From contig CM097884.1 of the NCBI GenBank assembly GCA_044892505.1, positions 70,680,001 through 70,744,000 on the forward strand: DNA of 64,000 nucleotides. The letters run 5' to 3'. Numbering within the stretch: the first letter of the stretch is position 1; every line of letters starts with the position of its first letter. A model generated the notes under the pieces. It was not told the origin of the DNA. It ran no database searches and saw only the letters and a program-made list of their open reading frames with translations. The stretch comes from Schmidtea nova (lineage: Eukaryota). A program made the position numbers and the translations under genes. This document shows positions 1,600 to 64,000 of the stretch, in pieces.

Positions 1600-4560
1600 A
1601 TATGAAATGGGTAATAAATTTTGGCTTGTATTTATTGGGTCAGTATTTTTTTACATTTTTGGTCAGTATTTTAAATAAATGGTTAGTATTTATATTAAAA
1701 TGTCAGTACGTAATACAAATGGTCAGTATTACAGCGATCAGTATAAAAACGATCAGTATTTTAATTAAAATGCAGATAGATATATTAATTGGTCAGTATT
1801 ATAAATAAATGGTCAGAAATTAAAATTATGTATCAGTATCTGCAAATATAAATGTCAGTAACAATAATTTTAAATAAAATTTAAAAAAACCTCATTTGGA
1901 ATTTTATACTTATGTCTTATTTTTATTATTATAATTAATTTTTATAAAAAGCTATATTGTCTCACTGATAGTTTAAATTAAAATATATTTTATAAGAAAT
2001 TTATTGAAAATTCTAGTAATGTGGTTTAATGTATAGGAGTCATTATTTTTCTTGTTGCAAATTTCAGAATTTTGTAAATTTAAATAATTTCTTTTTTATA
2101 TGCACTAAGAATATTATTTTAATGAAGTAGCCAGTTTTGATTGCTATATTTTGAAAATAATCGCAGACTTTTGTCAAAATTACGCATTTTATAACAAAAT
2201 CAGTGAATTGACATTAGTCAATTTGTCCGCTGTGTTACTCGAATGTGTAATGTTATTTAAATATTAAATCATCTCCGTTTAAGATAAAATTAAAAAAAAT
2301 AACATAATTAAAATATATATTATAAATTCAAGTCTCCAACTTATTTTATACTAATATATTTGTTGTTCTTGATTATTAATGATGATTGTTTTATTTGTTT
2401 ATTTCTGAAAAACCATTTTTGTTTATTATTTGTTTGTTTGAAATTTAAAATAATTGAAGGTTCAAAATGGCATCAAATATAGACGAATATCTATCATCAG
2501 ATGATGAAGAAATAAATGAGATTTTAACTATTAAAACTCGTAGGACAAAAATACAACACAAATGGAATATGGTTTCAACATTTAATAGCAAAGAAGATGC
2601 TATGATTGTTATAAATTCAGAAGAAATTTGGAGTTTCCATTATCGGAATAATACGGCTGATGGAGGTAAAGCTTATTATCGATGTAACATGGTAAAAAGA
2701 CGCGGACAACAATGCGAGGCTGGAATATATTTGCTGTTTAATAATAACAACGATAGTGTAACAATGTTTAGAGCAGAAAACAAGCATACGCATGGAAACT
2801 CACAGCAACAAACTTTAAAGCTTTCAAATCAGATGAAAGAAGAAATTAAAAAGCTTTTTAAACTAAAAATAAAACCAAAAAAAATTTTAGAAATATTAAA
2901 TGATAAAGGTTTAAAGCTTAAAAACAAGACACAAGTTTCTAATTACTTAGTGCAATTAAGAAAAGAAGCATATGGGCCAGCCGCAATAAGCCTTGGAGAA
3001 TTTGAGCAGTGGTGTATTGATCATAGCGAAATTCCAGATTCTGATGAATTACCTTTTGTGGTGTCACATCAAGTGAAATATTGTGATGAATTAGATGATG
3101 CAGAGGATGAATACAATGAGGGTTCGCACTTCAGAGTTTTAATTTCAACAAAACGTTTGCTTAAAAACTGTAGCATGTCGAACAAAATTCATATTGATGC
3201 CACTTATAAACTGGTATGGGAAGGTATGCCAGTTATAATTGTTGGAACTACAGATCTTGATCGTCATTTTCATCCGATTGGTATTGCTGTATGTACGAAT
3301 GAAAAAAAAGCAGATTTTCAATTTATTTTTGAAACAATTAAGAAAATAAATGAAGAAATTGAATATTTAATATCAGATGCATCAAATGCCATTCGTAATG
3401 CATTCATCGCAGTATTTGGTGTGAATAAACGTTTAATTATGTGTTGGGCTCATATGCGACGCAATGTTACGAAAAAAGTTGAGTCTCTTGTTGAAAAAAG
3501 CATGAGAAAGGAAATAATAGATGACATCGATACATTACAGTTAGCTTCAAGCAAGCAAATATTTGATAAAGCATTACCATTGTTTATCAAGAAATGGCTT
3601 CAGAAAAGCCAAACTGAGTTTATTAACTACATGAAACTTCAATGGTTTACAACACATCAATATTGGTACGAAGGTGCTGCACAATACACGCCTTCTACGA
3701 ACAACTCATTGGAATCTTTCAATTTAGTGGTAAAAAAAGAAGAAACATTTCGTGAACGACTACCACTCTCAAGATTTCTTGAATTAATCAATAAATCTGT
3801 AGCAAAGTGGTCAAACGAATATTCATCCAACAGTCGAATATTCAATACTTCAACTACAATTGAATTGTCCCAATGGACAAAAGGATATCAATGGGCAAAA
3901 ACTAATGTAAACGTCTCATCAGCAATTTCTAACGATTCAATACAATATTTTTGTCCATCAAATCAGCAATGTAAGGCATCAGAAGAGGAAGCAGCATATG
4001 TATTGGAAATGCGTTGGAAAACATTTGATCAATTCAAACGTAAAGGTTTCAAAGTTTGGATTATAAATCTGCCAAAAGAAGCAGAAAACTGGATGCATGG
4101 TTGCTGTACTTGTCCAGAATTCTTAAAGAAATTTATATGTTTTCATATAATAGGTTTAGCTATTCGCTTAAAATATATTAAACCTCCTCCAGCAGCTAAA
4201 CAAATACCAATAGGGCAAAAACGTTCGAGGGGAAGGCCAAAATTAGCAACGCGTGCGCTTTTAATTGATTAAAAAAATTTATTTATATTATAAAAATAAA
4301 TACTATCATTTTTTATGTTATATTTTAAGGTAATAAATTTTTTCTAAAAAAAAATAACTGCTCTTTTATTGTTTATACAGACCAAAAATTTTAAATTAAC
4401 TTACCAAAAAAGAAAATTATACTGTCCAATACACAAAAATATACTGACACTTAATTATTTATACCGACCAAAATATTATTTTATACTGATATTTTATTTA
4501 ATAAAATACCGACCAATTATTAAAAAAAATACTGACCAAATAAATAAACCCCATAAATTT
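1600..4560 (+). mobile_element. Mutator-like (MULE) DNA transposon, termini approximate
   Basis: Transposase ORF flanked by inverted arrays of a short motif: GGTCAGTAT-like copies at ~1640-1860 and ATACTGACC/ATACCGACC copies at ~4420-4550. TSD not identified. Confidence 0.75.
2467..4272 (+). CDS. MULE transposase, intact 601 aa
   Basis: N-terminal WRKY/FLYWCH-like zinc region (YYRC...C...HTH), DDE core (IHIDATYKL, LISDASNAI, CWAH, NNSLESFN), SWIM finger (CTCPEFLKKFICFH), C-terminal AT-hook-like RGRPK. Confidence 0.92.
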   Translation: MASNIDEYLSSDDEEINEILTIKTRRTKIQHKWNMVSTFNSKEDAMIVINSEEIWSFHYRNNTADGGKAYYRCNMVKRRGQQCEAGIYLLFNNNNDSVTMFRAENKHTHGNSQQQTLKLSNQMKEEIKKLFKLKIKPKKILEILNDKGLKLKNKTQVSNYLVQLRKEAYGPAAISLGEFEQWCIDHSEIPDSDELPFVVSHQVKYCDELDDAEDEYNEGSHFRVLISTKRLLKNCSMSNKIHIDATYKLVWEGMPVIIVGTTDLDRHFHPIGIAVCTNEKKADFQFIFETIKKINEEIEYLISDASNAIRNAFIAVFGVNKRLIMCWAHMRRNVTKKVESLVEKSMRKEIIDDIDTLQLASSKQIFDKALPLFIKKWLQKSQTEFINYMKLQWFTTHQYWYEGAAQYTPSTNNSLESFNLVVKKEETFRERLPLSRFLELINKSVAKWSNEYSSNSRIFNTSTTIELSQWTKGYQWAKTNVNVSSAISNDSIQYFCPSNQQCKASEEEAAYVLEMRWKTFDQFKRKGFKVWIINLPKEAENWMHGCCTCPEFLKKFICFHIIGLAIRLKYIKPPPAAKQIPIGQKRSRGRPKLATRALLID

Positions 4561-8131: not shown

Positions 8132-45544
<37,413 letters not shown>

Positions 45545-53027: not shown

Positions 53028-54192
53028 TGTTGGATGACGAGGGAAGACTCATAAAAACATTCAAAGTCAATAAGTATTATCATATCGGCAACAATAGATA
53101 CAGAATAAATATCTATCTGGAAAAATAACTCCCATCAATCGTCTGTCACAGTCATCATCCGTCTCAATATCCATCTCAATATCCGTCTCAAGTGCCCGTC
53201 TTAACCATCTCAATCCATCAGTAGAAATCCCTTTCGAAAAATAACTATAAACTATCTAAAACCCTAATTCACTCTACCAATCTCTGTGATCATCAATCAA
53301 CTATTGTCTGTCAATCTAAATATTTTAAATTATCTATGTGATCCGAACATTCTAAATTATCTGCATGATCTAAACATTTTAAATTATCTATGTGGTCATC
53401 TATCTATCAAACCCTTCGACTATGAACAATCCAGACTATCATCCTCATAAAAAATTGATCATGCATGAACTTTTAATATTGATTTTATTAATTTAGGATT
53501 TTATTTTATTTTTATTTTTATTAATATCAATATAAGTATTCAGTTAGATATTTCGAGATAATTATTATACCAAAACAGAATTTACTTCTGAATTGTTAAA
53601 TGTCAAATTTCCCCATTTGGGAATTTTCATAGAAAACATATCACTGCACACTATTATACAGTTCAATATATTGCTTATGACTTGAAGTCTTGTTCAACGT
53701 GCACAAAGTATTTAAACTTTAAAAAATTTGTATGTTAATTATTTCAAATGTCAAATTTTATAGTGTTAATAAAAATGTATATAGGAATAAATGTCAGGTT
53801 TTAGTGAATGCATGCCAAATTTTAGTATATAAGGAAAAGGCAATTCAGGCAAATTGCCATAAAATCTTATTTTTAAATTTAGCGTAATAGCTCTCTTAGG
53901 TACAAATCCTAAAGAGCGTTTAAAATAAGCCAGTTGGCTAAACAAAAAATAAGTTAAATATTTTTAAAGATTGCTAACTTTTGAAATCTGCACAAAATTT
54001 AAAGGATCTCAAAATCTGAAAGAGTTTGTAGTAGAAAGATTTTAAAGTCGTTGACAATTTTGTAAATTGTAATTGGTAAATTTTGTTATTTGAATAAACT
54101 TTATAAACAAGAGTCTTTTTGTCTTAATTATTTACATAGGAACCACCAACCCCCAGTTGAGATTTCAAGTATACATATTTGAGACCTCAACA
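53028..54192 (+). repeat. 5' LTR of giant retrotransposon (3' end firm, 5' end uncertain: TGTTGG 53028 or TGTTGA 52587)
   Basis: Ends ...CCTCAACA, 2 nt before the PBS. Contains ~12-bp tandem repeats (53157-53218) and 3x27-bp repeats (53315-53395). Confidence 0.55.
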
Positions 54193-54194
54193 TT

Positions 54195-54212
54195 TGGTGC
54201 CGCGAACCGGGA
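54195..54212 (+). promoter_or_regulatory. Primer binding site, tRNA-Phe-like
   Basis: TGGTGCCGCGAACCGGGA, 15 of 18 identical to the canonical tRNA-Phe PBS TGGTGCCGAAACCCGGGA as I recall it. Confidence 0.8.
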
Positions 54213-54443: not shown

Positions 54444-55430
54444 ATGAGTAATAACAGTACAAGCAGCAGCAATAGTGGAAATAACAGTCATACAGAAAAC
54501 ACCAACAGTAATCATAATTTTATAAAAACATTACCAATAGAATCATATAAAGGAGACCCTGAAAAGTTCGACGACTTTTTTGCCGAAATCGCACAATAGG
54601 CAGAGGCTTGTGGATGGACAACAAATGAATTAAAACAACGAATCCCATTATATTTAAAGGGATATGCATTACAAGCATATAATAATTTAGCATGCAAAGG
54701 CATCAATTACAATGAATTAGTAAAAAAGGCATTTGGTGCAGGAGATCACACTAGTAGATTAATTGAGGATCAGTTTTGGAACGGAATCCAAAAATATTTA
54801 TACAAAGCATTAATTACAATAGAGTATGAAGACTTAAATGAGTTAGTTCAAAAAGCAAAACGTATTGAAGCAATACAAAGAGATAGATTTAAACCAGAGG
54901 TAGATGCTGTAGAAATTGAAAGACAACCTGAGGTAAAGCCTGAGTTGAGAAATAAAGATGATAGCATCCCTTGGGAAGAAATGAAACAATTATATTTGAA
55001 TTTTGTTAATAATAGACGAAGAGTTAGTCCAAGTAGAAGCCAATCAACTGAAAACAGGGGAAGGTTTAACAGTCCAGGAAATAAAAATTTCGATAATAGA
55101 AATAATTTTAAAGATAGTTATAAAAGGAATAATAATAGAGATAGTTTTAGAGACAATCGTTTTGATAATGATAGAGACAACAGAGACACTTTTAGAGACA
55201 GTCGTTCTGGTTATAACAGAAACAGTTACAATGGATACAATAGAAATAATAGAGATAATCGCTTTGAATATAATAGAAGAGATAATAGATATAGAGATAA
55301 TTCGAGAAATAGACAAGATAGCCCGGTAAGGTGAAATATGTATAATAATGATGGTAGAGATAAAGTAAATTTTAATGGACAAATAAAATGTTATAATTGC
55401 CAGAGGTATGGGCACTTAGCAAAAGTATGC
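54444..55430 (+). pseudogene. gag: Gag: capsid-like region, R/D/N-rich linker, CCHC knuckle, with two in-frame stops (TAG 54597, TGA 55332)
   Basis: One frame from ATG 54444: YKGDPEKFDDFF..AEACGW...PLYLKGYALQAY...DQFWNG, then CYNCQRYGHLAKVC at 55389-55430. Confidence 0.8.
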
Positions 55431-58400
55431 AATAAACCACGAGCTGGTTCACCAATTGGAGTAAGATTTAAAAATGAGCCTGAGATAAAACAGGTAAATA
55501 GTGCTGAGCTTGAGTCAGCAAATAAAGAGATAAATAATTTAAGAGAAGAATTAAAAGAATTTAAAATTCAATATGGAAGACTCATTGAGAGAAAACTTGA
55601 AATGTCTATAAATGAATTTAGCACTTTTACAAATGAGGTAGATATTGATAATGATGAGTTAAAAGAAATTAGAGAAGCAGATGAAGTATTTCTTACAGAA
55701 GAAAATAGACAAAAAGAATTAATAGAGGAATTTAAAGAGGTATTGTATAAGCAACCATTTGATGACAATGAAACATTAAGAGTAATCAATAAAATACAGG
55801 TTAATGGGATTGATTTAGAGAGACTTAGAAATTTGATACCAATGATGGTAAAGAGACAAAATGTAACGAGATTATTTGAATTAGAAATAGAAATAAAAGA
55901 GATGTTGAAATGTTATGGAGAATATATAAGAAAAAATGAAAAATTGCATGAAACACTAAATGTAACGATTGAATTAAATGATAATTATTTTTTTAGTATT
56001 AAACACAAGATGCATCCTTGCACTAAAGTGAGTAAATTAAAACGAATGGCAAGAGCCAAATGGCCAGGAACCATAGGAGAGAGAGATGTAATAAAATTAT
56101 ATTTTAATGGAATAGAACTATTGAATGACGAATATTTAATTGACTATGGGATAAACCCAGTAAGTGATAATATTGTGATAGCTACAATAGAAAAGCAAAC
56201 GATAAATGAAATAATGACACCAGCACCGTCAGTTGAGTTGAGTATAAATGAGGAAAATGATTTTGACAGGTTATTCAGAACATGGGATAAATCACCTAGT
56301 GAAACAATGAAATCGGTAACGGGGGAAGAAATTATATTTAAACCTATAGATGATAAATATAGTAAACTACAAGAAACAATAGAAAGAATAGCTGACGAAG
56401 CTAAAACAAAAGATGCAGAAACATCAAAGCGAGGTAGAGGAAGACCTCGAAAATCAGAAATTATAGAAAAATCAGAGAATAGAAAGACAGCAGAACGATT
56501 AAGAGAGATTGCAAATCAACAAAGACATGAACAATCAGAGTATGAAGATGATAATAATGAACTTAACAAAATAAAAGAAGTAATAAAAGCAATGAATATT
56601 AAGCTATTTCCAGAAACAAAGCCAACAGTACTAATTGAAAATATAACTGAAAGGATGATGTTAATTAAAAAGGATACTAAAGAACTAGCCACAGAGGAAG
56701 CAAATGAAAAAACAGTATTAAAAATCCTGTTTAATACAGGGATAGATAAAGATAAAATAATAACGGCCATGGCATACTTGGCCGCAAGATATAAAAAGCT
56801 CATAAAGGAAAATCCAAAAGAGCAATTAGAAAAAGTAGCAACAATGATGTTTAAAAGATTGAAAGAAGAGGCAATACCATGGATAAAAAGGAAAGGAGGA
56901 TGGAAAGTATTATATGATAAAGATATGACGAATAAAGAGAGTGATACAGATGATGTAATAAAACAATTAATAAAGAAAGCAACAGTAAAACCAAAGACAG
57001 AGAGTAAATCGATAACCTCCATAGTAATAGTCATAATCACCTTGTTATTAGATTTAATCAAGGGGGGCAATGCAATGGTAGCATATGATTGTCAAAATCC
57101 AAAGTGGGGACAAAAATACTCACTGTTAGATGTTGAAAATTGCCCTGAAGCAAATCCAACTAAATTAATCATGTCAGAGCCTCAAATATTCCATGTTTAT
57201 CAAGAATCAGACTTTATTCATACAGAGGCTAAAGAGTGCATAGTAAAGTATCAGGAGGAAGCATATATATGTCATGTTGGGGCAAGAACAGTGTTAAAAC
57301 CTACGTGGACACCCGAAGCAGTAATATTGTCGCCAATAGAGTGTGAAGATGCATTTAAAACAAAGAAAGTAAAATATAGCGGTCATAAAGGAATAGAACT
57401 AGAAGCAAGGATAGGAGCAAAAATGAGACAAGATGTGAATGTCGTGGGATGGACATCAAAAGGAGGATATTGTGAAGGAGGAGAATATACAATATGGGGC
57501 GAAAAACTGAGTAATGTTGTAGTAAGGAGACACTACATGGTAGAACTGAGAAAGTTCAAAGCATCATTCGACAGCAGCTCAAAGAAAATGATGATATACA
57601 AATTTTGTACATTAGAGGAATCTTATTGCGATACAGGAGAATCAATGCTAATATACAAAATAGATAAATACGATTGTCAGTTAACAAAATTAAAATCATT
57701 AAAATTTAGGGAAATCAAAGGAAAACAGTTCACAGAAGTAGACTCAAAAAGGGTGAGGGATCAAAAAAGGAAAACAACAATTGTACAAGAAAAAGATACA
57801 CCTACAATATATATGTCAGAATCTGAAAACGAAGCAATGAGGTTCGTTAGTAAAAGGAAAAGTGTAAAATGTGGTAAGGAAATAATACAAACTAATTATG
57901 AAGGGATATACATAAGCAAAGAAGAAGTCAAAGATGCAAAACAAAAAGTAAATAAATTCGACGTCAAACTTGCATCATACTTCAACAATAAAATCGATTT
58001 TTTCTATCATAACCAACTAGTACAATTAGATAAAGTATATCAATCAACAATTATGAGCGATTGCAAACTCAACAGAGAAATATTAAGGACAAAAATGGCA
58101 GTGGCGGTAACAAACCCAGATCTAATGGCACCAATAATCTTCTCAGAAGAAGGAACATTTGCAAGGATAGTAGGAGAAGTGATACAGACATTTCAATGTA
58201 AACCTGTTAGTGTATCGTTAGCAACAAATAATCAGTGCACTAATGAATTACCGGTAATATATAAAGGAGAAAGGGTATACCTTCAACCAATTACTAGAAT
58301 ATTAACAGAAAAAACATATATACCGAGAAAAATAGAAAAATGCACTAACTTATTAGACCCATTATACAAAATAAATGACGAAATGTGGATATCTATGTCA

Positions 58401-58913
58401 GATAGAAAGGAGGCAATGAAACCACTCAAATTAGAACTCATAGAGCTAGAAAAAAGATTAGAGTTCAAAGAAATCAACGATATGGACAGCAATGGTATAT
58501 ATACGAGAGAAGCTATAGAAAGTGCAAGAAAACATATGCTATTTCCAAACGAAAAAGAACGAGTACTTTCAATAATGGTTAACAGAGTTATCGAAGGAAG
58601 TTACGGAGGAAATTACAACTTTGATGTGTTATTATCAAAAGAATACTTCAAAAAAGTAGCATATAAAGTACTATATAGCATATGGGGATACTTTGCAGTC
58701 CTTGGAAACATGTTTTCTACAATCTTAGGTATATATTATACGGTTGCATTACTAAAAATGATATGTTCTTCTCTAGTATCACTGAGACAGTTAAAACAAG
58801 TATTTGGAAATTCATATAAATTATTAGCATGTTTGTGCCCATTTATAGCTAAATATCTTATTACGGCGAAACACGACAAGGAAATACGTTTAATAAAAGT
58901 CCAAAGGAATTGA
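55338..58913 (+). CDS. 1191-aa continuation of ORF1: zinc knuckle, ubiquitin-like domain, AT-hook, Bcl-2-like domain, signal/TM, envelope-type protein
   Basis: Ubl ~55953-56192 (KLYFNGIELLNDEYLIDYGI). KRGRGRPRK at 56427. BH1-like LFNTGIDKDKIITAMAY, BH2-like PWIKRKGGW. Hydrophobic SIVIVIITLLLDLI. Cys-rich ectodomain from AYDC (57075) to a C-terminal TM. Confidence 0.85.
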   Translation: MYNNDGRDKVNFNGQIKCYNCQRYGHLAKVCNKPRAGSPIGVRFKNEPEIKQVNSAELESANKEINNLREELKEFKIQYGRLIERKLEMSINEFSTFTNEVDIDNDELKEIREADEVFLTEENRQKELIEEFKEVLYKQPFDDNETLRVINKIQVNGIDLERLRNLIPMMVKRQNVTRLFELEIEIKEMLKCYGEYIRKNEKLHETLNVTIELNDNYFFSIKHKMHPCTKVSKLKRMARAKWPGTIGERDVIKLYFNGIELLNDEYLIDYGINPVSDNIVIATIEKQTINEIMTPAPSVELSINEENDFDRLFRTWDKSPSETMKSVTGEEIIFKPIDDKYSKLQETIERIADEAKTKDAETSKRGRGRPRKSEIIEKSENRKTAERLREIANQQRHEQSEYEDDNNELNKIKEVIKAMNIKLFPETKPTVLIENITERMMLIKKDTKELATEEANEKTVLKILFNTGIDKDKIITAMAYLAARYKKLIKENPKEQLEKVATMMFKRLKEEAIPWIKRKGGWKVLYDKDMTNKESDTDDVIKQLIKKATVKPKTESKSITSIVIVIITLLLDLIKGGNAMVAYDCQNPKWGQKYSLLDVENCPEANPTKLIMSEPQIFHVYQESDFIHTEAKECIVKYQEEAYICHVGARTVLKPTWTPEAVILSPIECEDAFKTKKVKYSGHKGIELEARIGAKMRQDVNVVGWTSKGGYCEGGEYTIWGEKLSNVVVRRHYMVELRKFKASFDSSSKKMMIYKFCTLEESYCDTGESMLIYKIDKYDCQLTKLKSLKFREIKGKQFTEVDSKRVRDQKRKTTIVQEKDTPTIYMSESENEAMRFVSKRKSVKCGKEIIQTNYEGIYISKEEVKDAKQKVNKFDVKLASYFNNKIDFFYHNQLVQLDKVYQSTIMSDCKLNREILRTKMAVAVTNPDLMAPIIFSEEGTFARIVGEVIQTFQCKPVSVSLATNNQCTNELPVIYKGERVYLQPITRILTEKTYIPRKIEKCTNLLDPLYKINDEMWISMSDRKEAMKPLKLELIELEKRLEFKEINDMDSNGIYTREAIESARKHMLFPNEKERVLSIMVNRVIEGSYGGNYNFDVLLSKEYFKKVAYKVLYSIWGYFAVLGNMFSTILGIYYTVALLKMICSSLVSLRQLKQVFGNSYKLLACLCPFIAKYLITAKHDKEIRLIKVQRN

Positions 58914-59523
58914 AGAAAGGCAATTATTGGTAGATGATGAAAACGATGAGGAAATAATTAAAGCGCATATATCACATGAAGGAAATGTACCACAACAAGG
59001 ACTATATGAAAACCAAAGAGAACAACTAAAAGAGCTACAAGAAAATATAGAAATCAAAATTCCTAGAGAAAACAAGAATTGTCACTGTGAACCTAAAAAG
59101 ATATATGGTTGTTATAACTTAGAAGTCGAAACAATGGAACGATTAGATGCAGCAAACGAAGCAAGACCAAGACTTAAAATAATTGTAAACAATATAATCA
59201 TAAATGCATTAGTAGATACAGGAGCAGCAACATCATTAATTAGAGAAGATCAACTGACAGATGATCAAAAAAGAAATATTATGAGCACAACAGATAAAGT
59301 AGTATCATTATCAGCACATTGTATTCCACTAAAGGGAGACATAGAACTAATAGTCGAAACACCAGAACAGGTAATAAACCACATATTTAAAGTGGTGCAA
59401 GAATGTAATAGCATATGTATATTGGGAATCGATATACTCAACAAGTTAGAAAATTGCATTATAGATTTAACAGATAATACGATAAAGAAAAAAGCAATTA
59501 AACATAAATCCAAGTTCACATAA
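58897..59523 (+). CDS. pol: Aspartic protease region of pol
   Basis: ALVDTGAATSLI and ILGIDIL motifs. Same frame as RT, separated only by TAA at 59521. Confidence 0.9.
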   Translation, partial: KSKGIEERQLLVDDENDEEIIKAHISHEGNVPQQGLYENQREQLKELQENIEIKIPRENKNCHCEPKKIYGCYNLEVETMERLDAANEARPRLKIIVNNIIINALVDTGAATSLIREDQLTDDQKRNIMSTTDKVVSLSAHCIPLKGDIELIVETPEQVINHIFKVVQECNSICILGIDILNKLENCIIDLTDNTIKKKAIKHKSKFT

Positions 59524-62500
59524 GTTGTTGCATTAGAAGCATTTGAATTGGAATATGAATGCGATCATATAATTCCCTTAAAAGTTAACATCAAAAGTGA
59601 GGACACTTTTATTTTTGAGCCAGAAACGGCAATTATACAAAATCAGAATATAATGCTAACCAATGAATGCGTAATTCCGAAGAAGGGAATAATACCATTG
59701 AGAATAGCAAATTATGAAAAAGGTAATGTTAAAATACACAAAGGTACGAAATTGGGAAAATTATTCAAAGGTGAATTAGAAAAAACGTACGAAGTCAGTG
59801 AGATAAGCGTGATGAAGGATAACGGCAAGGGAGTAGTCGAACCTAGTAAGATAAATAATATAAAATCATATGATAAGGTAAAAATTAATAATGAATACTT
59901 AACATTAACACAACAAGCACAACTACAAATATTGATAGATAAATATAGTGATGTTTTTGCAAAACATGAATTTGATCTAGGAGATACCGATATAATCAAA
60001 CATGTAATAGATACAGGTAATGCGAGACCAATCAAACAAAGACCATACAGCGTACCATATAAGTTAAGAGAGGAAATAAAACGACAAATAAAAGAACTAA
60101 ACGATGCAGGTGTAATAAAACAGAGTTTTTCACAGTGGGCATCACCCATTGTACCCGTTAAAAAGAAAGATGGAGAAATAAGAATGTGCATCGATTATCG
60201 CAAATTAAATGATGTAACAGTAAAAGACTCATACCCTTTCCCAAAAGCACAAGAGCAATACGATAAACTTAGGGATGCTAAGTATTTTTCAGTCATTGAT
60301 GCCAATAAGGGGTATATGCAAATTCAAATGGAAGAAGGGGATGCGGAAAAAACAGCATTTGTTATTGAGGATGGTTTATATGAGTACACACGACTACCTT
60401 TTGGATTAACTAACGCACCAGCTACATTTCAGCGTTTAATGAACACAATATTAGTAAATGTACAACACTGCGCAGTTTATATGGATGATATATTAATATC
60501 ATCAAAAACATTTGAGGAACATTTAAAGGATATAACAAATGTACTTGAGAGACTAAGAAAAGCAAGGATAAAAATTAAACCAACCAAATGTAAATGGGCA
60601 GAACCATCAGCATTATTTTTGGGGCATATAGTTACAGTTGAAGGGATAAAACCAAATCCAGAAAAAATAGAAGTCGTAAAAAAGTTCCCGATACCAAAAA
60701 CAGTGCAACAAGTACAAGGGTTTTTAGGTTTAACAGGCTATTACCGTAAATTTATACAAGATTATGCAAAGATAGCATCACCTATAATAGAACTAACAAA
60801 GGGAATTAAAACAAAAGGGGAATGCAAAGATGTGTTAATAGTCCAAGAAATTAACAATAAAGTTAACAAGATACAAAAGAAGTGGACAAAAGAACATCAG
60901 GAAGCATTCGATAAACTAAAAGAAAGATTGATAACAGCACCAGTGTTAAGGTACCCAGACTTCGAAAAACACTTTATAGTAATGACGGATGCCAGCGGGA
61001 AAGCCGTAGGAGCAGTCTTAGGTCAAGAGGAAGAGAAAGGGAAAGATTACGTAATAGCATATGCTAGCAAAACATTAAAAGGAGCACAGCTGAGGTATTC
61101 AACAATAGAGAAAGAATGTTACGCAATAGTATTTGCCCTAAAACAATTCAAACCATACATATATGGAACTGAAGTAATAATAAGAACGGACCATAAACCA
61201 TTAGAAGGCTTATGGAAACATAAGGATACATCAAGTAGACTACTAAAATGGGCAATGAAAATACAAGACATTCACTTGAAAATTATATATAAACCAGGTA
61301 GAATAAATAAAAACGCAGATGCACTGTCAAGAATACCAGAATTAGGAGCACTTGAAATATTTGCACTAGTAGCAGAAAAGCCAATCGATATATATGAGGA
61401 ACAGATGAAAGACCTAGAAATCAGCAGAATAAGAAATGAAATCAGAAAGGAAAGTAATTCAAAGTATAAAATATCAAAGAGATTAGTAGTAATAGAGGAT
61501 TTCAGTGGTAAACAATTAATAGTAGTACCTCAAAAATTAAGACAAATACTTCTATTACAATATCACGATGGAGCATTAGGAGGTCACTTATCATCTAGAA
61601 AAACAGCAAGTAGATTATTACAAAAATATTACTGGGAAGAGTTAAAGAAAGATGTTAAGAGATGGTGTAATGCGTGTACAATATGTGCAACAAGAAAAAA
61701 TACAGGTACTAAAACAAAAGCGCCGTTACATCCTATTCCAGCAACAACATCACCAATGGAACTATGTGCAATGGACTTCCTATGTAAATTACCTACTACA
61801 ATTAATGGGAATAAACATATACTAGTATTTAGTGATTATTTTACTAGATGGGCAGAAGCATTCCCAACAAAAGATGAAACAGCAGAAACCGTTGCTAAAT
61901 TACTCATAGAAAAAATAATTTTTAAGATAGGTACACCTAAAAGATTATTAACAGATAAAGGAACAAATTTTACTAGCGAATTAATAAAAAGGGTAGCTAA
62001 CATTTTTAACATGCAAAAGATCAACACAACAGCGTATCACCCTCAAACTGATGGGCTAGTAGAAAGGTTTAACGGGACATTATTAAGCAGACTAGCGGTC
62101 TTTGTAGGCAAAAATCAAAATGATTGGGACGAATACGTAAGTCAATGCACATACATCCATAATATCACTCCAAATGAAACAACAGGGTATTCACCGTATT
62201 ACTTAATGTTCTTAAGAGAACCAGCAACACCAATAGATACAATTTTTGAACCTCGAGTATCACAATATTTAGACGCACCAGACTATGTCACACTAATGCA
62301 GGAAAAACTGCAAGAAGTGTATAAAGTAGCTAATTTAAAAGTCAAATTTAGACAAGAACAGTACAAAGCCGACTATGACAAAAATAGTAAACCACATAAC
62401 TTTAAAGTAGGTGATAAGGTTAGACTTATGTCACCACAAGTAGGAAAAGGAAAAACAACAAAGCTAGCAAGACCATATAAAGGTCCATACGAAGTAGTTA

Positions 62501-63420
62501 AAGTAATAAATGAGAATCTACACCTACAAAAGCATAAGAATGAGGATCCAATAGTAGTACATGTTAACAGATGCAAATTAGCAGAGGCAGAGGTCACGAT
62601 AGATAAACCTCACAAGTATAATCTTAGGTCTCAGAACAAGCTAATAATATCGGCTATCTTCTTAACAATCATAACAGTTGTTGGTTCAACCAAAACACTA
62701 GAATTTGACAAATTATTAATAAAAATATCAACAAACGAAGTCAGAGTATTTATCATAAACAGGGGAGTAATCGACATATACATGCAAACAACAGATAAAG
62801 AAAATCCAAAGATGATAAAAAGAAAAGAGGACAGTACAACCAAGGAAATCGAAAGAGGAAACTATGTTAACTTCACAAAACTAACACCTAATACAATATA
62901 CAGAATCTGCATACAGAGAGACACAGATACAACAATATGGAGATGCAAGAGAATAAAAACAGAACAACTACCCAAAGATCCAAGTATAACAAAAAAGACG
63001 ACAATAACACCAGATAGAACAGAAAGCACAAGAACAAAGACAACGACAACAAACAATTTATTAAATATCACTGCACATATAGACAAAAAAACAACATACA
63101 CTAGAATAACAAAATTCCAAAAACAACAACAAAAACAAAAATATATCAAAATAAAACAAGGAAAACCAATAGTTATACATAACTTAGAGGAATTACAAGC
63201 ATTTCAAAAAAAGGATAAAAAGCCACATTGGCCATATTATGTAATCACAGCATCGGTAATAACATTAGCAGTCTTAGCTTTAGTAACTAGCACACAAATA
63301 TACAAAAAGTACAAATGGAAAAGGCAGCGGTATCGGAGCCGACTGGTCAAAGATGTACCAGGACATTTCCATTTGGGTAAATACATACCTGGCATATACA
63401 CATTATCAACACAAGTATGA
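59524..63420 (+). CDS. pol: Pol: RT, RNase H, integrase, plus a C-terminal membrane-protein extension
   Basis: WASPIVPVKKKDGEIRMCIDYRKLN, LPFGLTNAPATFQ, YMDD (60478), TDASGKAVGAVL, TDHKPL, HHCC finger, MDFL/TDKG/VERFN, GPY motif. Frame stays open ~265 aa past the integrase. Confidence 0.96.
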   Translation, partial: VVALEAFELEYECDHIIPLKVNIKSEDTFIFEPETAIIQNQNIMLTNECVIPKKGIIPLRIANYEKGNVKIHKGTKLGKLFKGELEKTYEVSEISVMKDNGKGVVEPSKINNIKSYDKVKINNEYLTLTQQAQLQILIDKYSDVFAKHEFDLGDTDIIKHVIDTGNARPIKQRPYSVPYKLREEIKRQIKELNDAGVIKQSFSQWASPIVPVKKKDGEIRMCIDYRKLNDVTVKDSYPFPKAQEQYDKLRDAKYFSVIDANKGYMQIQMEEGDAEKTAFVIEDGLYEYTRLPFGLTNAPATFQRLMNTILVNVQHCAVYMDDILISSKTFEEHLKDITNVLERLRKARIKIKPTKCKWAEPSALFLGHIVTVEGIKPNPEKIEVVKKFPIPKTVQQVQGFLGLTGYYRKFIQDYAKIASPIIELTKGIKTKGECKDVLIVQEINNKVNKIQKKWTKEHQEAFDKLKERLITAPVLRYPDFEKHFIVMTDASGKAVGAVLGQEEEKGKDYVIAYASKTLKGAQLRYSTIEKECYAIVFALKQFKPYIYGTEVIIRTDHKPLEGLWKHKDTSSRLLKWAMKIQDIHLKIIYKPGRINKNADALSRIPELGALEIFALVAEKPIDIYEEQMKDLEISRIRNEIRKESNSKYKISKRLVVIEDFSGKQLIVVPQKLRQILLLQYHDGALGGHLSSRKTASRLLQKYYWEELKKDVKRWCNACTICATRKNTGTKTKAPLHPIPATTSPMELCAMDFLCKLPTTINGNKHILVFSDYFTRWAEAFPTKDETAETVAKLLIEKIIFKIGTPKRLLTDKGTNFTSELIKRVANIFNMQKINTTAYHPQTDGLVERFNGTLLSRLAVFVGKNQNDWDEYVSQCTYIHNITPNETTGYSPYYLMFLREPATPIDTIFEPRVSQYLDAPDYVTLMQEKLQEVYKVANLKVKFRQEQYKADYDKNSKPHNFKVGDKVRLMSPQVGKGKTTKLARPYKGPYEVVKVINENLHLQKHKNEDPIVVHVNRCKLAEAEVTIDKPHKYNLRSQNKLIISAIFLTIITVVGSTKTLEFDKLLIKISTNEVRVFIINRGVIDIYMQTTDKENPKMIKRKEDSTTKEIERGNYVNFTKLTPNTIYRICIQRDTDTTIWRCKRIKTEQLPKDPSITKKTTITPDRTESTRTKTTTTNNLLNITAHIDKKTTYTRITKFQKQQQKQKYIKIKQGKPIVIHNLEELQAFQKKDKKPHWPYYVITASVITLAVLALVTSTQIYKKYKWKRQRYRSRLVKDVPGHFHLGKYIPGIYTLSTQV

Positions 63421-63541
63421 TATAAATTGGTCAATAATATTTATTAAAATTATATATATGTATATCTATATTTTGGTGTATGAGGGAAAACCAGCATTAC
63501 ACTTCAAACTTAAAATTATTTATTTAATTTGTAGAAAGAAA

Positions 63542-64000
63542 ATGTACAATAGCAATCAACCCGACAGACAATCAAATAGACAATTCAGTCAGCACCCAAA
63601 CAAACAATTCAAACAACACAACCAACCCAATCGTCAACACCCATACAAACAAAGTCAATCTCACAATAAATCGTTTGAAAAGTACGATCAAATGTTCAAA
63701 CAAAACGAGCAACCCGCATCTTATCAAAAATACACCTGTTTTATAAACAAACTGGGAAACAGTTTTTATAAAAATATCCAAAACAAAATCAGTACAGACG
63801 GACAACCTATCACCATAAGAAATTTCCCTAACCAAGTCTGCATACCCAATGAAATGAAGACAGACATCGAAGAGAGAGAAATGAGTATAATCAAATTTAA
63901 TGATGCTCGAAGAGTCAAACTCCGAGAACTCATTGGAAGTTTCGATCAATATAAAAATGTGGATAAAGCGGTGGCAGAAGGTAAAAAAGTACCCCACCAG
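63542..64000 (+). CDS. Additional ORF downstream of pol, 3'-truncated by the window (at least 153 aa)
   Basis: ATG at 63542, no stop to the window end (hence absent from the ORF track): MYNSNQPDRQSNRQFSQHPNKQ...AEGKKVPHQ. Confidence 0.7.
   Translation, partial: MYNSNQPDRQSNRQFSQHPNKQFKQHNQPNRQHPYKQSQSHNKSFEKYDQMFKQNEQPASYQKYTCFINKLGNSFYKNIQNKISTDGQPITIRNFPNQVCIPNEMKTDIEEREMSIIKFNDARRVKLRELIGSFDQYKNVDKAVAEGKKVPHQ

Follow-up and report, generated by a model that had tools for sequence, protein, structure and literature searches.

A retrotransposon in the planarian Schmidtea nova raises the question of whether a Bcl-2-family domain can be built into the polyprotein of a retrovirus-like element and, if so, what it does there. 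Viral Bcl-2 proteins have been studied in large DNA viruses. We analysed a stretch of 64,000 nucleotides (contig CM097884.1, positions 70,680,001 to 70,744,000), called the window throughout. An earlier sequence-only reading had proposed two BH3-like motifs, a BH1-like motif, a BH2-like motif and a hydrophobic segment in one frame with Gag. All four motifs and the hydrophobic segment were found at the proposed places in one open reading frame (55338-58913), and the assignment to the Bcl-2 family was borne out by Pfam, by a profile built from host genes only and by a structure model.

The element and its copies

The domain lies in a Ty3/gypsy LTR retrotransposon of 13.5 kb, which runs from position 53028 to about 2.6 kb beyond the end of the window, as seen in Table 1. 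The LTRs, the primer-binding site and the PR-RT-RH-IN order are those of Ty3/gypsy elements, and a 4-bp target-site duplication bounds the element. The primer-binding site presumably resembles the 3' end of tRNA-Phe. Placement of a class III env between gag and pol is a feature of GAG-ENV-POL errantiviruses of the HSV/gB type. A Retrotrans_gag match was found on the sister family D, and the weak ubiquitin/SUMO-like domain is without a C-terminal Gly-Gly. A genome search for copies, in which 150 of 2,252 candidates were scored, gave matches of 84-100% identity; by a hand count among the matches listed, 30 of the 150 copies hold a single frame of at least 3,000 codons. The polyprotein is 3,068 aa long, and its order in one frame of other genomic copies is Gag-UBL-Bcl2-TM-Env-TM-PR-RT-RH-IN-TM-domain-TM. 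Contigs of two runs from one study span 30 of 30 bins without a joint, which indicates presence only.

Table 1. Features of the element and of its Bcl-2-fold domain (positions in the window unless stated)
Feature	Position	Strand	Remarks
5' LTR	53028..54192	+	1165 nt, TG...CA; identical to the 3' LTR at G000:C3:70745406-70746570, outside the window
Primer-binding site	54195..54212	+	
Gag: capsid region, Arg/Asn/Ser-rich stretch, one CCHC zinc knuckle (55383-55433)	54445..55433	+	
Ubiquitin/SUMO-like domain, weak	55950..56200	+	Pfam PF11976 E 0.012, PF00240 E 0.02, both below cut-off; PDB E 0.65
First "BH3-like" motif	56367..56399	+	Insertion in family A alone; outside the fold
Second "BH3-like" motif	56487..56519	+	Conserved helix that precedes the fold; BH3 Asp absent
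Bcl-2-fold domain, helices 1-8	56538..56927	+	Pfam, profile searches, structure model
BH3-position helix (helix 2)	~56628-56663	+	
BH1	56727-56777	+	NWGR site 56745-56756
BH2	56871-56912	+	
TM segment	57009..57074	+	Predicted domain tail anchor and Env signal sequence
Class III (HSV gB / Monjiviricetes-type) envelope glycoprotein	57075..58910	+	TM ~58710-58766; Pfam PF24664 E 3.8e-87
Pol: protease, RT, RNase H, integrase	59134..62043	+	Pfam
Polyprotein end	62641..63420	+	Two more TM segments flanking a second predicted lumenal domain
ORF2 start	63287..64000	+	739-codon frame extending beyond the window; akin to the DEDD exonuclease ORF of a sister family

The copy in the window is broken by stops at 54597, 55332 and 59521, a gag deletion near 54714-54727 and a frameshift near 58910. 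The proposal that the domain is encoded in frame with Gag holds for the family, in which other copies have an unbroken Gag-to-Pol frame; the window copy shares the frame only, since the stops at 54597-54599 and 55332-55334 separate the domain from the capsid part. It combines identical LTRs with five internal defects and 0.7% internal divergence from another copy (L035), which suggests that it was made in trans from a defective template.

Two further parts of the element were noted. The second predicted lumenal domain (62641-63420) gave no Pfam match and is fast evolving, with a dN/dS of 0.59. ORF2 (63287-64000 in the window; L031:287-2503) is homologous (E 7e-19) to an ORF in the neighbouring family-D element that encodes an RNase_T/DEDD exonuclease and exceeds its Pfam cut-off; ORF2 itself gave no Pfam exonuclease match and its catalytic motifs look degenerate, so it is perhaps a pseudo-exonuclease.

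A Bcl-2 fold next to Env

With the Pfam Bcl-2 profile (PF00452), the excised region scored 32.3-33.2 bits (E 1.5e-7, 8e-8), over the cut-off of 31.4 bits, and the whole frame scored 29.1 bits. This match is limited to profile positions 31/32-100, the BH1-BH2 half. Two of the 10 family representatives passed the cut-off and one had no match at all. The profile made from host Bcl-2 genes only gave the domain 32.4 bits, a score reached by none of 1000 shuffles (best 9.5), with 2.4 bits for the reversed sequence. When a profile of 16 element sequences was compared with the PDB, Bcl-xL/Bcl-2 filled all 60 of the rows listed (best E 1.1e-7), and profile-profile comparison with eight host Bcl-2 loci returned a probability of 96.8 across 67 columns.

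AlphaFold2 was run template-free on an alignment of 16 element sequences that contained no host gene. The resulting model (pLDDT 81.7, pTM 0.73; four of the five models were near 80) has helices at residues 26-40, 52-63, 65-73, 78-85, 92-112, 114-132, 134-139 and 142-146, arranged as an eight-helix bundle around a central helix 5, together with an additional N-terminal helix of lower certainty. The alpha-helical Bcl-2 bundle that had been predicted was thus recovered in the model. In a comparison with a library of 48,161 PDB representatives, Bcl-2-fold chains made up the first 36 of the best 50 rows, 35 of them by title and one, 2k36, as what we take to be vaccinia K7. The top match was Trichoplax Bcl-2L2 (Z 12.4, rmsd 3.3 Å, 130 residues aligned), and the highest-ranked unrelated row had a Z of 5.2. 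For helical bundles the tool advises caution below about 13, and a Z of 12.4 is slightly under this line, but family members fill the top of the list without a gap, in agreement with the sequence evidence. Among the best 20 rows in BFVD, 14 were named Bcl-2, Bak, BALF1 or E1B-19K, none of them at E≤0.001. The structurally aligned range covers about residues 22-151 of the model, which correspond to 56538-56927 in the window.

Conserved and lost BH motifs

Motif conservation was counted in 132 of 134 matches; two gapped rows were left out, and some loci occur twice in the count. Near-invariance among copies was seen at the start of BH1 and at the Trp and Gly positions of BH2; for the BH2 pattern W-x-x-x-x-G-G-W, the residues were kept in 122, 129, 126 and 131 of the 132 matches, in that order. 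The loss of the BH1 NWGR motif was also seen as proposed, since its Gly was kept in 0/132 matches. Its Arg was kept in 44 matches and replaced by Lys in 59, the window copy included. The canonical pro-survival BH1, with both Gly and Arg, is therefore absent from the element. The 2/132 matches with Trp at this site stem from one genomic copy that was retrieved twice. We had considered the intact NW-R of a sister family as the ancestral state and rejected this, as the Trp occurs in that single genomic copy.

The two proposed BH3 helices were not supported by this comparison. Both lie upstream of the structurally aligned fold, and each is without either the Leu or the Asp of BH3. The first is an insertion found in family A alone. 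The second is shared by families A, B and C; it has a Glu in 126 of 132 matches and no BH3 Asp. We place the true BH3 position at helix 2, because the Pfam match of family D extends to profile position 7. Helix 2 is degenerate in the element and does not have the canonical L-x-x-I-G-D pattern of BAX/BAK or BH3-only proteins.

Six families, their constraint and their origin

The domain occupies the same position in six families of this genome: A, which includes the window copy, A2, B, C, D, which includes the neighbouring element, and D2. Domain identity across families falls from 82% to 15%, its length is near-constant and all six retain it. Evolutionary rates were calculated by a pairwise counting method with a kappa of 3 and bootstrap intervals. 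Whole-domain dN/dS was 0.23 (0.11-0.41) for A/A2, 0.22 (0.12-0.37) for A/A3, 0.39 (0.22-0.62) for A/B, 0.50 (0.29-0.80) for C/B and 0.57 (0.36-0.92) for D/D2, so that the intervals stayed below 1 in all five pairs. When the domain was halved, the intervals for D/D2 and C/B reached 1. Gag gave a dN/dS of 0.03-0.05. In the three closer pairs, Env gave 0.06-0.07 and RT 0.02-0.04, where A vs A2 is the only one of the three family-A comparisons counted for RT, RH, IN and the C-terminal part; Env rose to 0.23 in the distant A/B pair. The linkers that flank the domain gave 0.21-0.82 in the three closer pairs, like the domain itself. This check therefore supports coding constraint (0.22-0.57) and does not single out the domain. 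The constant length and core of the domain, next to linkers that gain and lose residues, are a stronger sign of constraint.

These rates bear on two other explanations. One is that the domain is a relic, a folded spacer kept just so that the polyprotein frame stays open and soluble. Its linker-like dN/dS, the half-domain intervals that reach 1 and the loss of the binding motif would all fit a spacer, whereas a length and a BH1/BH2 core kept at 15% identity next to linkers of changing length, and the lack of any deletion in six families, would not. We regard a spacer as quite improbable, the least probable of the readings discussed here.

The other explanation is that the fold has been reused for a non-apoptotic host target, as in the poxvirus Bcl-2-like inhibitors of NF-kB and IRF3, with the fast evolution reflecting host conflict. 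This precedent (PMC4358236, as far as its available text goes), the loss of the NWGR Gly in every match, a protein change several-fold faster than that of Env or RT and the adjoining ubiquitin-like domain all speak for it. However, whole-domain intervals never lay above 1, the BH2 Trp and Gly-Gly-Trp are near-invariant, and the model is nearer to BH3-binding Bcl-2 chains than to A52, B14, A46 and A49 (Z 4.2-7.8). Cellular and anti-apoptotic viral Bcl-2 chains gave Z scores of 10-12, compared to 5.9-7.8 for the poxviral A52, B14 and A46. On balance, a non-apoptotic target appears unlikely to us, if the least so of the three alternatives that we weighed.

Where the domain came from was addressed with a tree, in which 16 element rows fell on one side of a branch (95/92) and 14 host rows on the other. 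The element branch is compatible with a single capture from a host gene. The tree showed no sister donor among the host genes included and carries a long-branch warning. The top profile scores among host genes went to two degenerate paralogues, L041 and L043 (25.4 and 24.0 bits), with 20.9 bits for the canonical L036. Word-index searches found no relatives outside this genome at E≤0.001, and an Atlas search returned unrelated matches alone (<0.9); neither result says anything about range. A single match in a representative library, to 16 short stretches of a 2,367-aa protein, was taken as repeat noise.

The host Bcl-2 family itself looks expanded (L036-L064): of the first 30 loci, 14 do not belong to elements. 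Several of these 14 have a degenerate NWGR and one is BAK-like. A search of the 10 kb upstream of either paralogue did not find the BH3 exon of the BAK-like gene.

A putative shared membrane segment

The hydrophobic segment at 57009-57074 is positioned as had been proposed, as both the tail of the domain and the signal of Env, and is kept in 5/5 aligned families. It begins 37 residues beyond BH2 and is followed by Env. Signal peptidase requires small residues at -3 and -1 of its cleavage site, and small residues are found at these positions before the Env start in 5/5 aligned families. Families A, B and C have four hydrophobic segments: one follows the Bcl-2 domain, one closes Env and two lie beyond integrase. 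Four TM segments are predicted to alternate the chain across the membrane, with Gag-UBL-Bcl2 and Pol cytosolic and Env lumenal.

In all six families the domain sits directly before the Env signal, and it was seen nowhere else in the element. This fixed site could point to a structural role, in which the domain would act close to the membrane as a matrix-like adaptor: together with the TM it would tie Gag to the ER membrane receiving Env and so couple capsid and envelope. The BCL2-like domain of Burro elements also precedes env (PMC6431247, in the text available), and helix 5 in family D is hydrophobic enough to be scored as a TM. Against it, conservation of the element's structural proteins far exceeds that of the domain (Gag 0.03-0.05, Env 0.06-0.07). 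Other GAG-ENV-POL elements have been described without mention of Bcl-2, in a paper that was not aimed at cargo annotation (PMC13524379). We hold a structural role to be somewhat less likely than a non-apoptotic target.

A possible pro-survival factor

The most likely reading, with a probability of roughly 0.5, is that the diverged Bcl-2 domain acts as a pro-survival factor for element-expressing cells through a non-canonical groove. The steps would be as follows. The Bcl-2 domain, which probably goes back to a single capture of a host gene, lies between Gag and Env in a single polyprotein, as other copies show. The Env signal segment is predicted to hold it on the cytosolic face of the ER. 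Signal peptidase would cut after residue 579 of ORF 55338 and leave the TM on the Bcl-2 domain, giving the topology of a tail-anchored Bcl-2 protein, and the element protease may release the domain from Gag. The domain could then bind host BH3 helices of the BAK/BAX or Beclin type through its non-canonical groove, and death triggered by reverse transcription, integration or Env load would be dampened.

We favour this pro-survival role because the model is nearest to BH3-binding proteins and because viral Bcl-2 proteins without the motifs bind Bak and Bax; DPV022, which is without BH motifs, still binds Bak, Bax and Bim (PMC11209288, in its available text). In addition, the IAP cargo of Burro1 is anti-apoptotic and protects planarian stem cells, according to the accessible part of PMC13465017.

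Several results count against it. The domain is not singled out by dN/dS, as its values are not below those of the flanking linkers. An anchor linked to Env points to the ER and not to mitochondria. The fold evidence includes no BFVD match at E 0.001, a Z under the caution line and a Pfam cut-off passed by 2/10 representatives. Finally, the BH1 Gly is lost in 132/132 matches and the Arg is unstable, two residues to which a key role in BH3 binding has been ascribed (PMC7719400).

A more specific version of the pro-survival reading, which we offer as tentative, treats the domain as a retroelement vBcl-2 in the form of a polyprotein module. The Env signal peptide would be a leftover that serves as the ER tail anchor, the NWGR-less groove would neutralise host BH3 proteins, and the conserved upstream helix would be a tethered pseudo-BH3 plug removed by the element protease. 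Compact errantiviruses without IAP cargo might in this way protect the stem or germ cells in which they spread.

Relation to known elements

The novelty implied by the sequence-only reading was not borne out, since a BCL2-like domain is already described in planarian Burro elements. These carry BCL2-like, Ubi2/SUMO-like and in-frame env domains in the same order as here, and the domains were proposed to meddle with apoptosis and ubiquitination (PMC6431247, available text). Like the present element, the giant gypsy-like Burro and GYPSM1 elements (Grohme 2018 and Jurka 2007, as cited in PMC6431247) encode Gag, Ubi2/SUMO-like, BCL2-like, in-frame env and Pol parts in a single polyprotein; the ubiquitin-like match is weak here. 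They differ in size, as Burro elements exceed 30 kb and encode 4,873-5,140 aa (PMC6431247), whereas this element has 13.5 kb and about 3,070 aa. It also has 1.2-kb LTRs and one zinc knuckle, with no BIR, MATH or ankyrin Pfam match in the element frames scanned. Since there is no BIR match, the Bcl-2 domain is the only recognised apoptosis-type cargo of this compact element.

By size and cargo, then, the element is not a giant Burro and fits the compact GAG-ENV-POL class, which has been catalogued for Schmidtea mediterranea (PMC13524379, available text). Smed_errantivirus_3, of the GAG-ENV-POL HSV/gB type, has an Env roughly two-thirds identical by eye, a listed span of about 14.5 kb and the same gene order, the features on which the two were compared. 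The neighbouring family D resembles Smed_errantivirus_1 by eye. The paper that lists Smed_errantivirus_3 makes no mention of Bcl-2: "bcl" has 0 occurrences in the main text and seven supplements of PMC13524379, to the extent that these are available.

Viral Bcl-2 proteins of large DNA viruses (CNP058, A179L, KsBcl-2, M11, M11L, DPV022) have the same fold (Z 7-12), are virus-borne and in some cases are without BH motifs. They are stand-alone genes with shown BH3 binding, unlike the domain described here, which is a polyprotein module whose predicted anchor precedes Env. The B-IAP of Burro1 is likewise apoptosis-type cargo of a planarian retroelement, but it is a RING and BIR inhibitor at the caspase level with a shown function (Lee et al. 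2026, as described in PMC13465017). Our literature search found no functional study of this Bcl-2 domain; Grohme 2018 and Lee 2026 may bear on it, through compact elements or a test of the domain.

The presence of Bcl-2 motifs in such elements is thus already published, and the compact element is new. Added here are the full-fold model, the NWGR loss across six families, the predicted dual use of the TM and a small BIR-less element, which lets the Bcl-2 domain be tested alone. If the domain works as a pro-survival factor, retrovirus-like elements would have a hold on host cell death at the mitochondrial/ER step as well, beside the IAP cargo of Burro1.

Surroundings of the element

Upstream of the element, the window contains an intact-looking MULE transposase with FLYWCH and SWIM fingers (2467-4272), a Cullin-family exon (8132-8464) and a 157-codon frame on the minus strand (44034-44504), which by eye joins the end of a Penelope-type RT to the start of a GIY-YIG nuclease and has no good Pfam match. 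Just past the element lies an inverted repeat pair of about 7 kb (G000:C3:70746679-70762593; L031, L032), both arms of which contain AAT-type repeats and an ORF for a RING finger that exceeds the PF13920 cut-off. A distant relative of the element, with the same layout, is found 18 kb downstream on the minus strand (G000:C3:70764390-70780981; L033, L034), with 860-nt LTRs and, by eye, two ubiquitin-like stretches.
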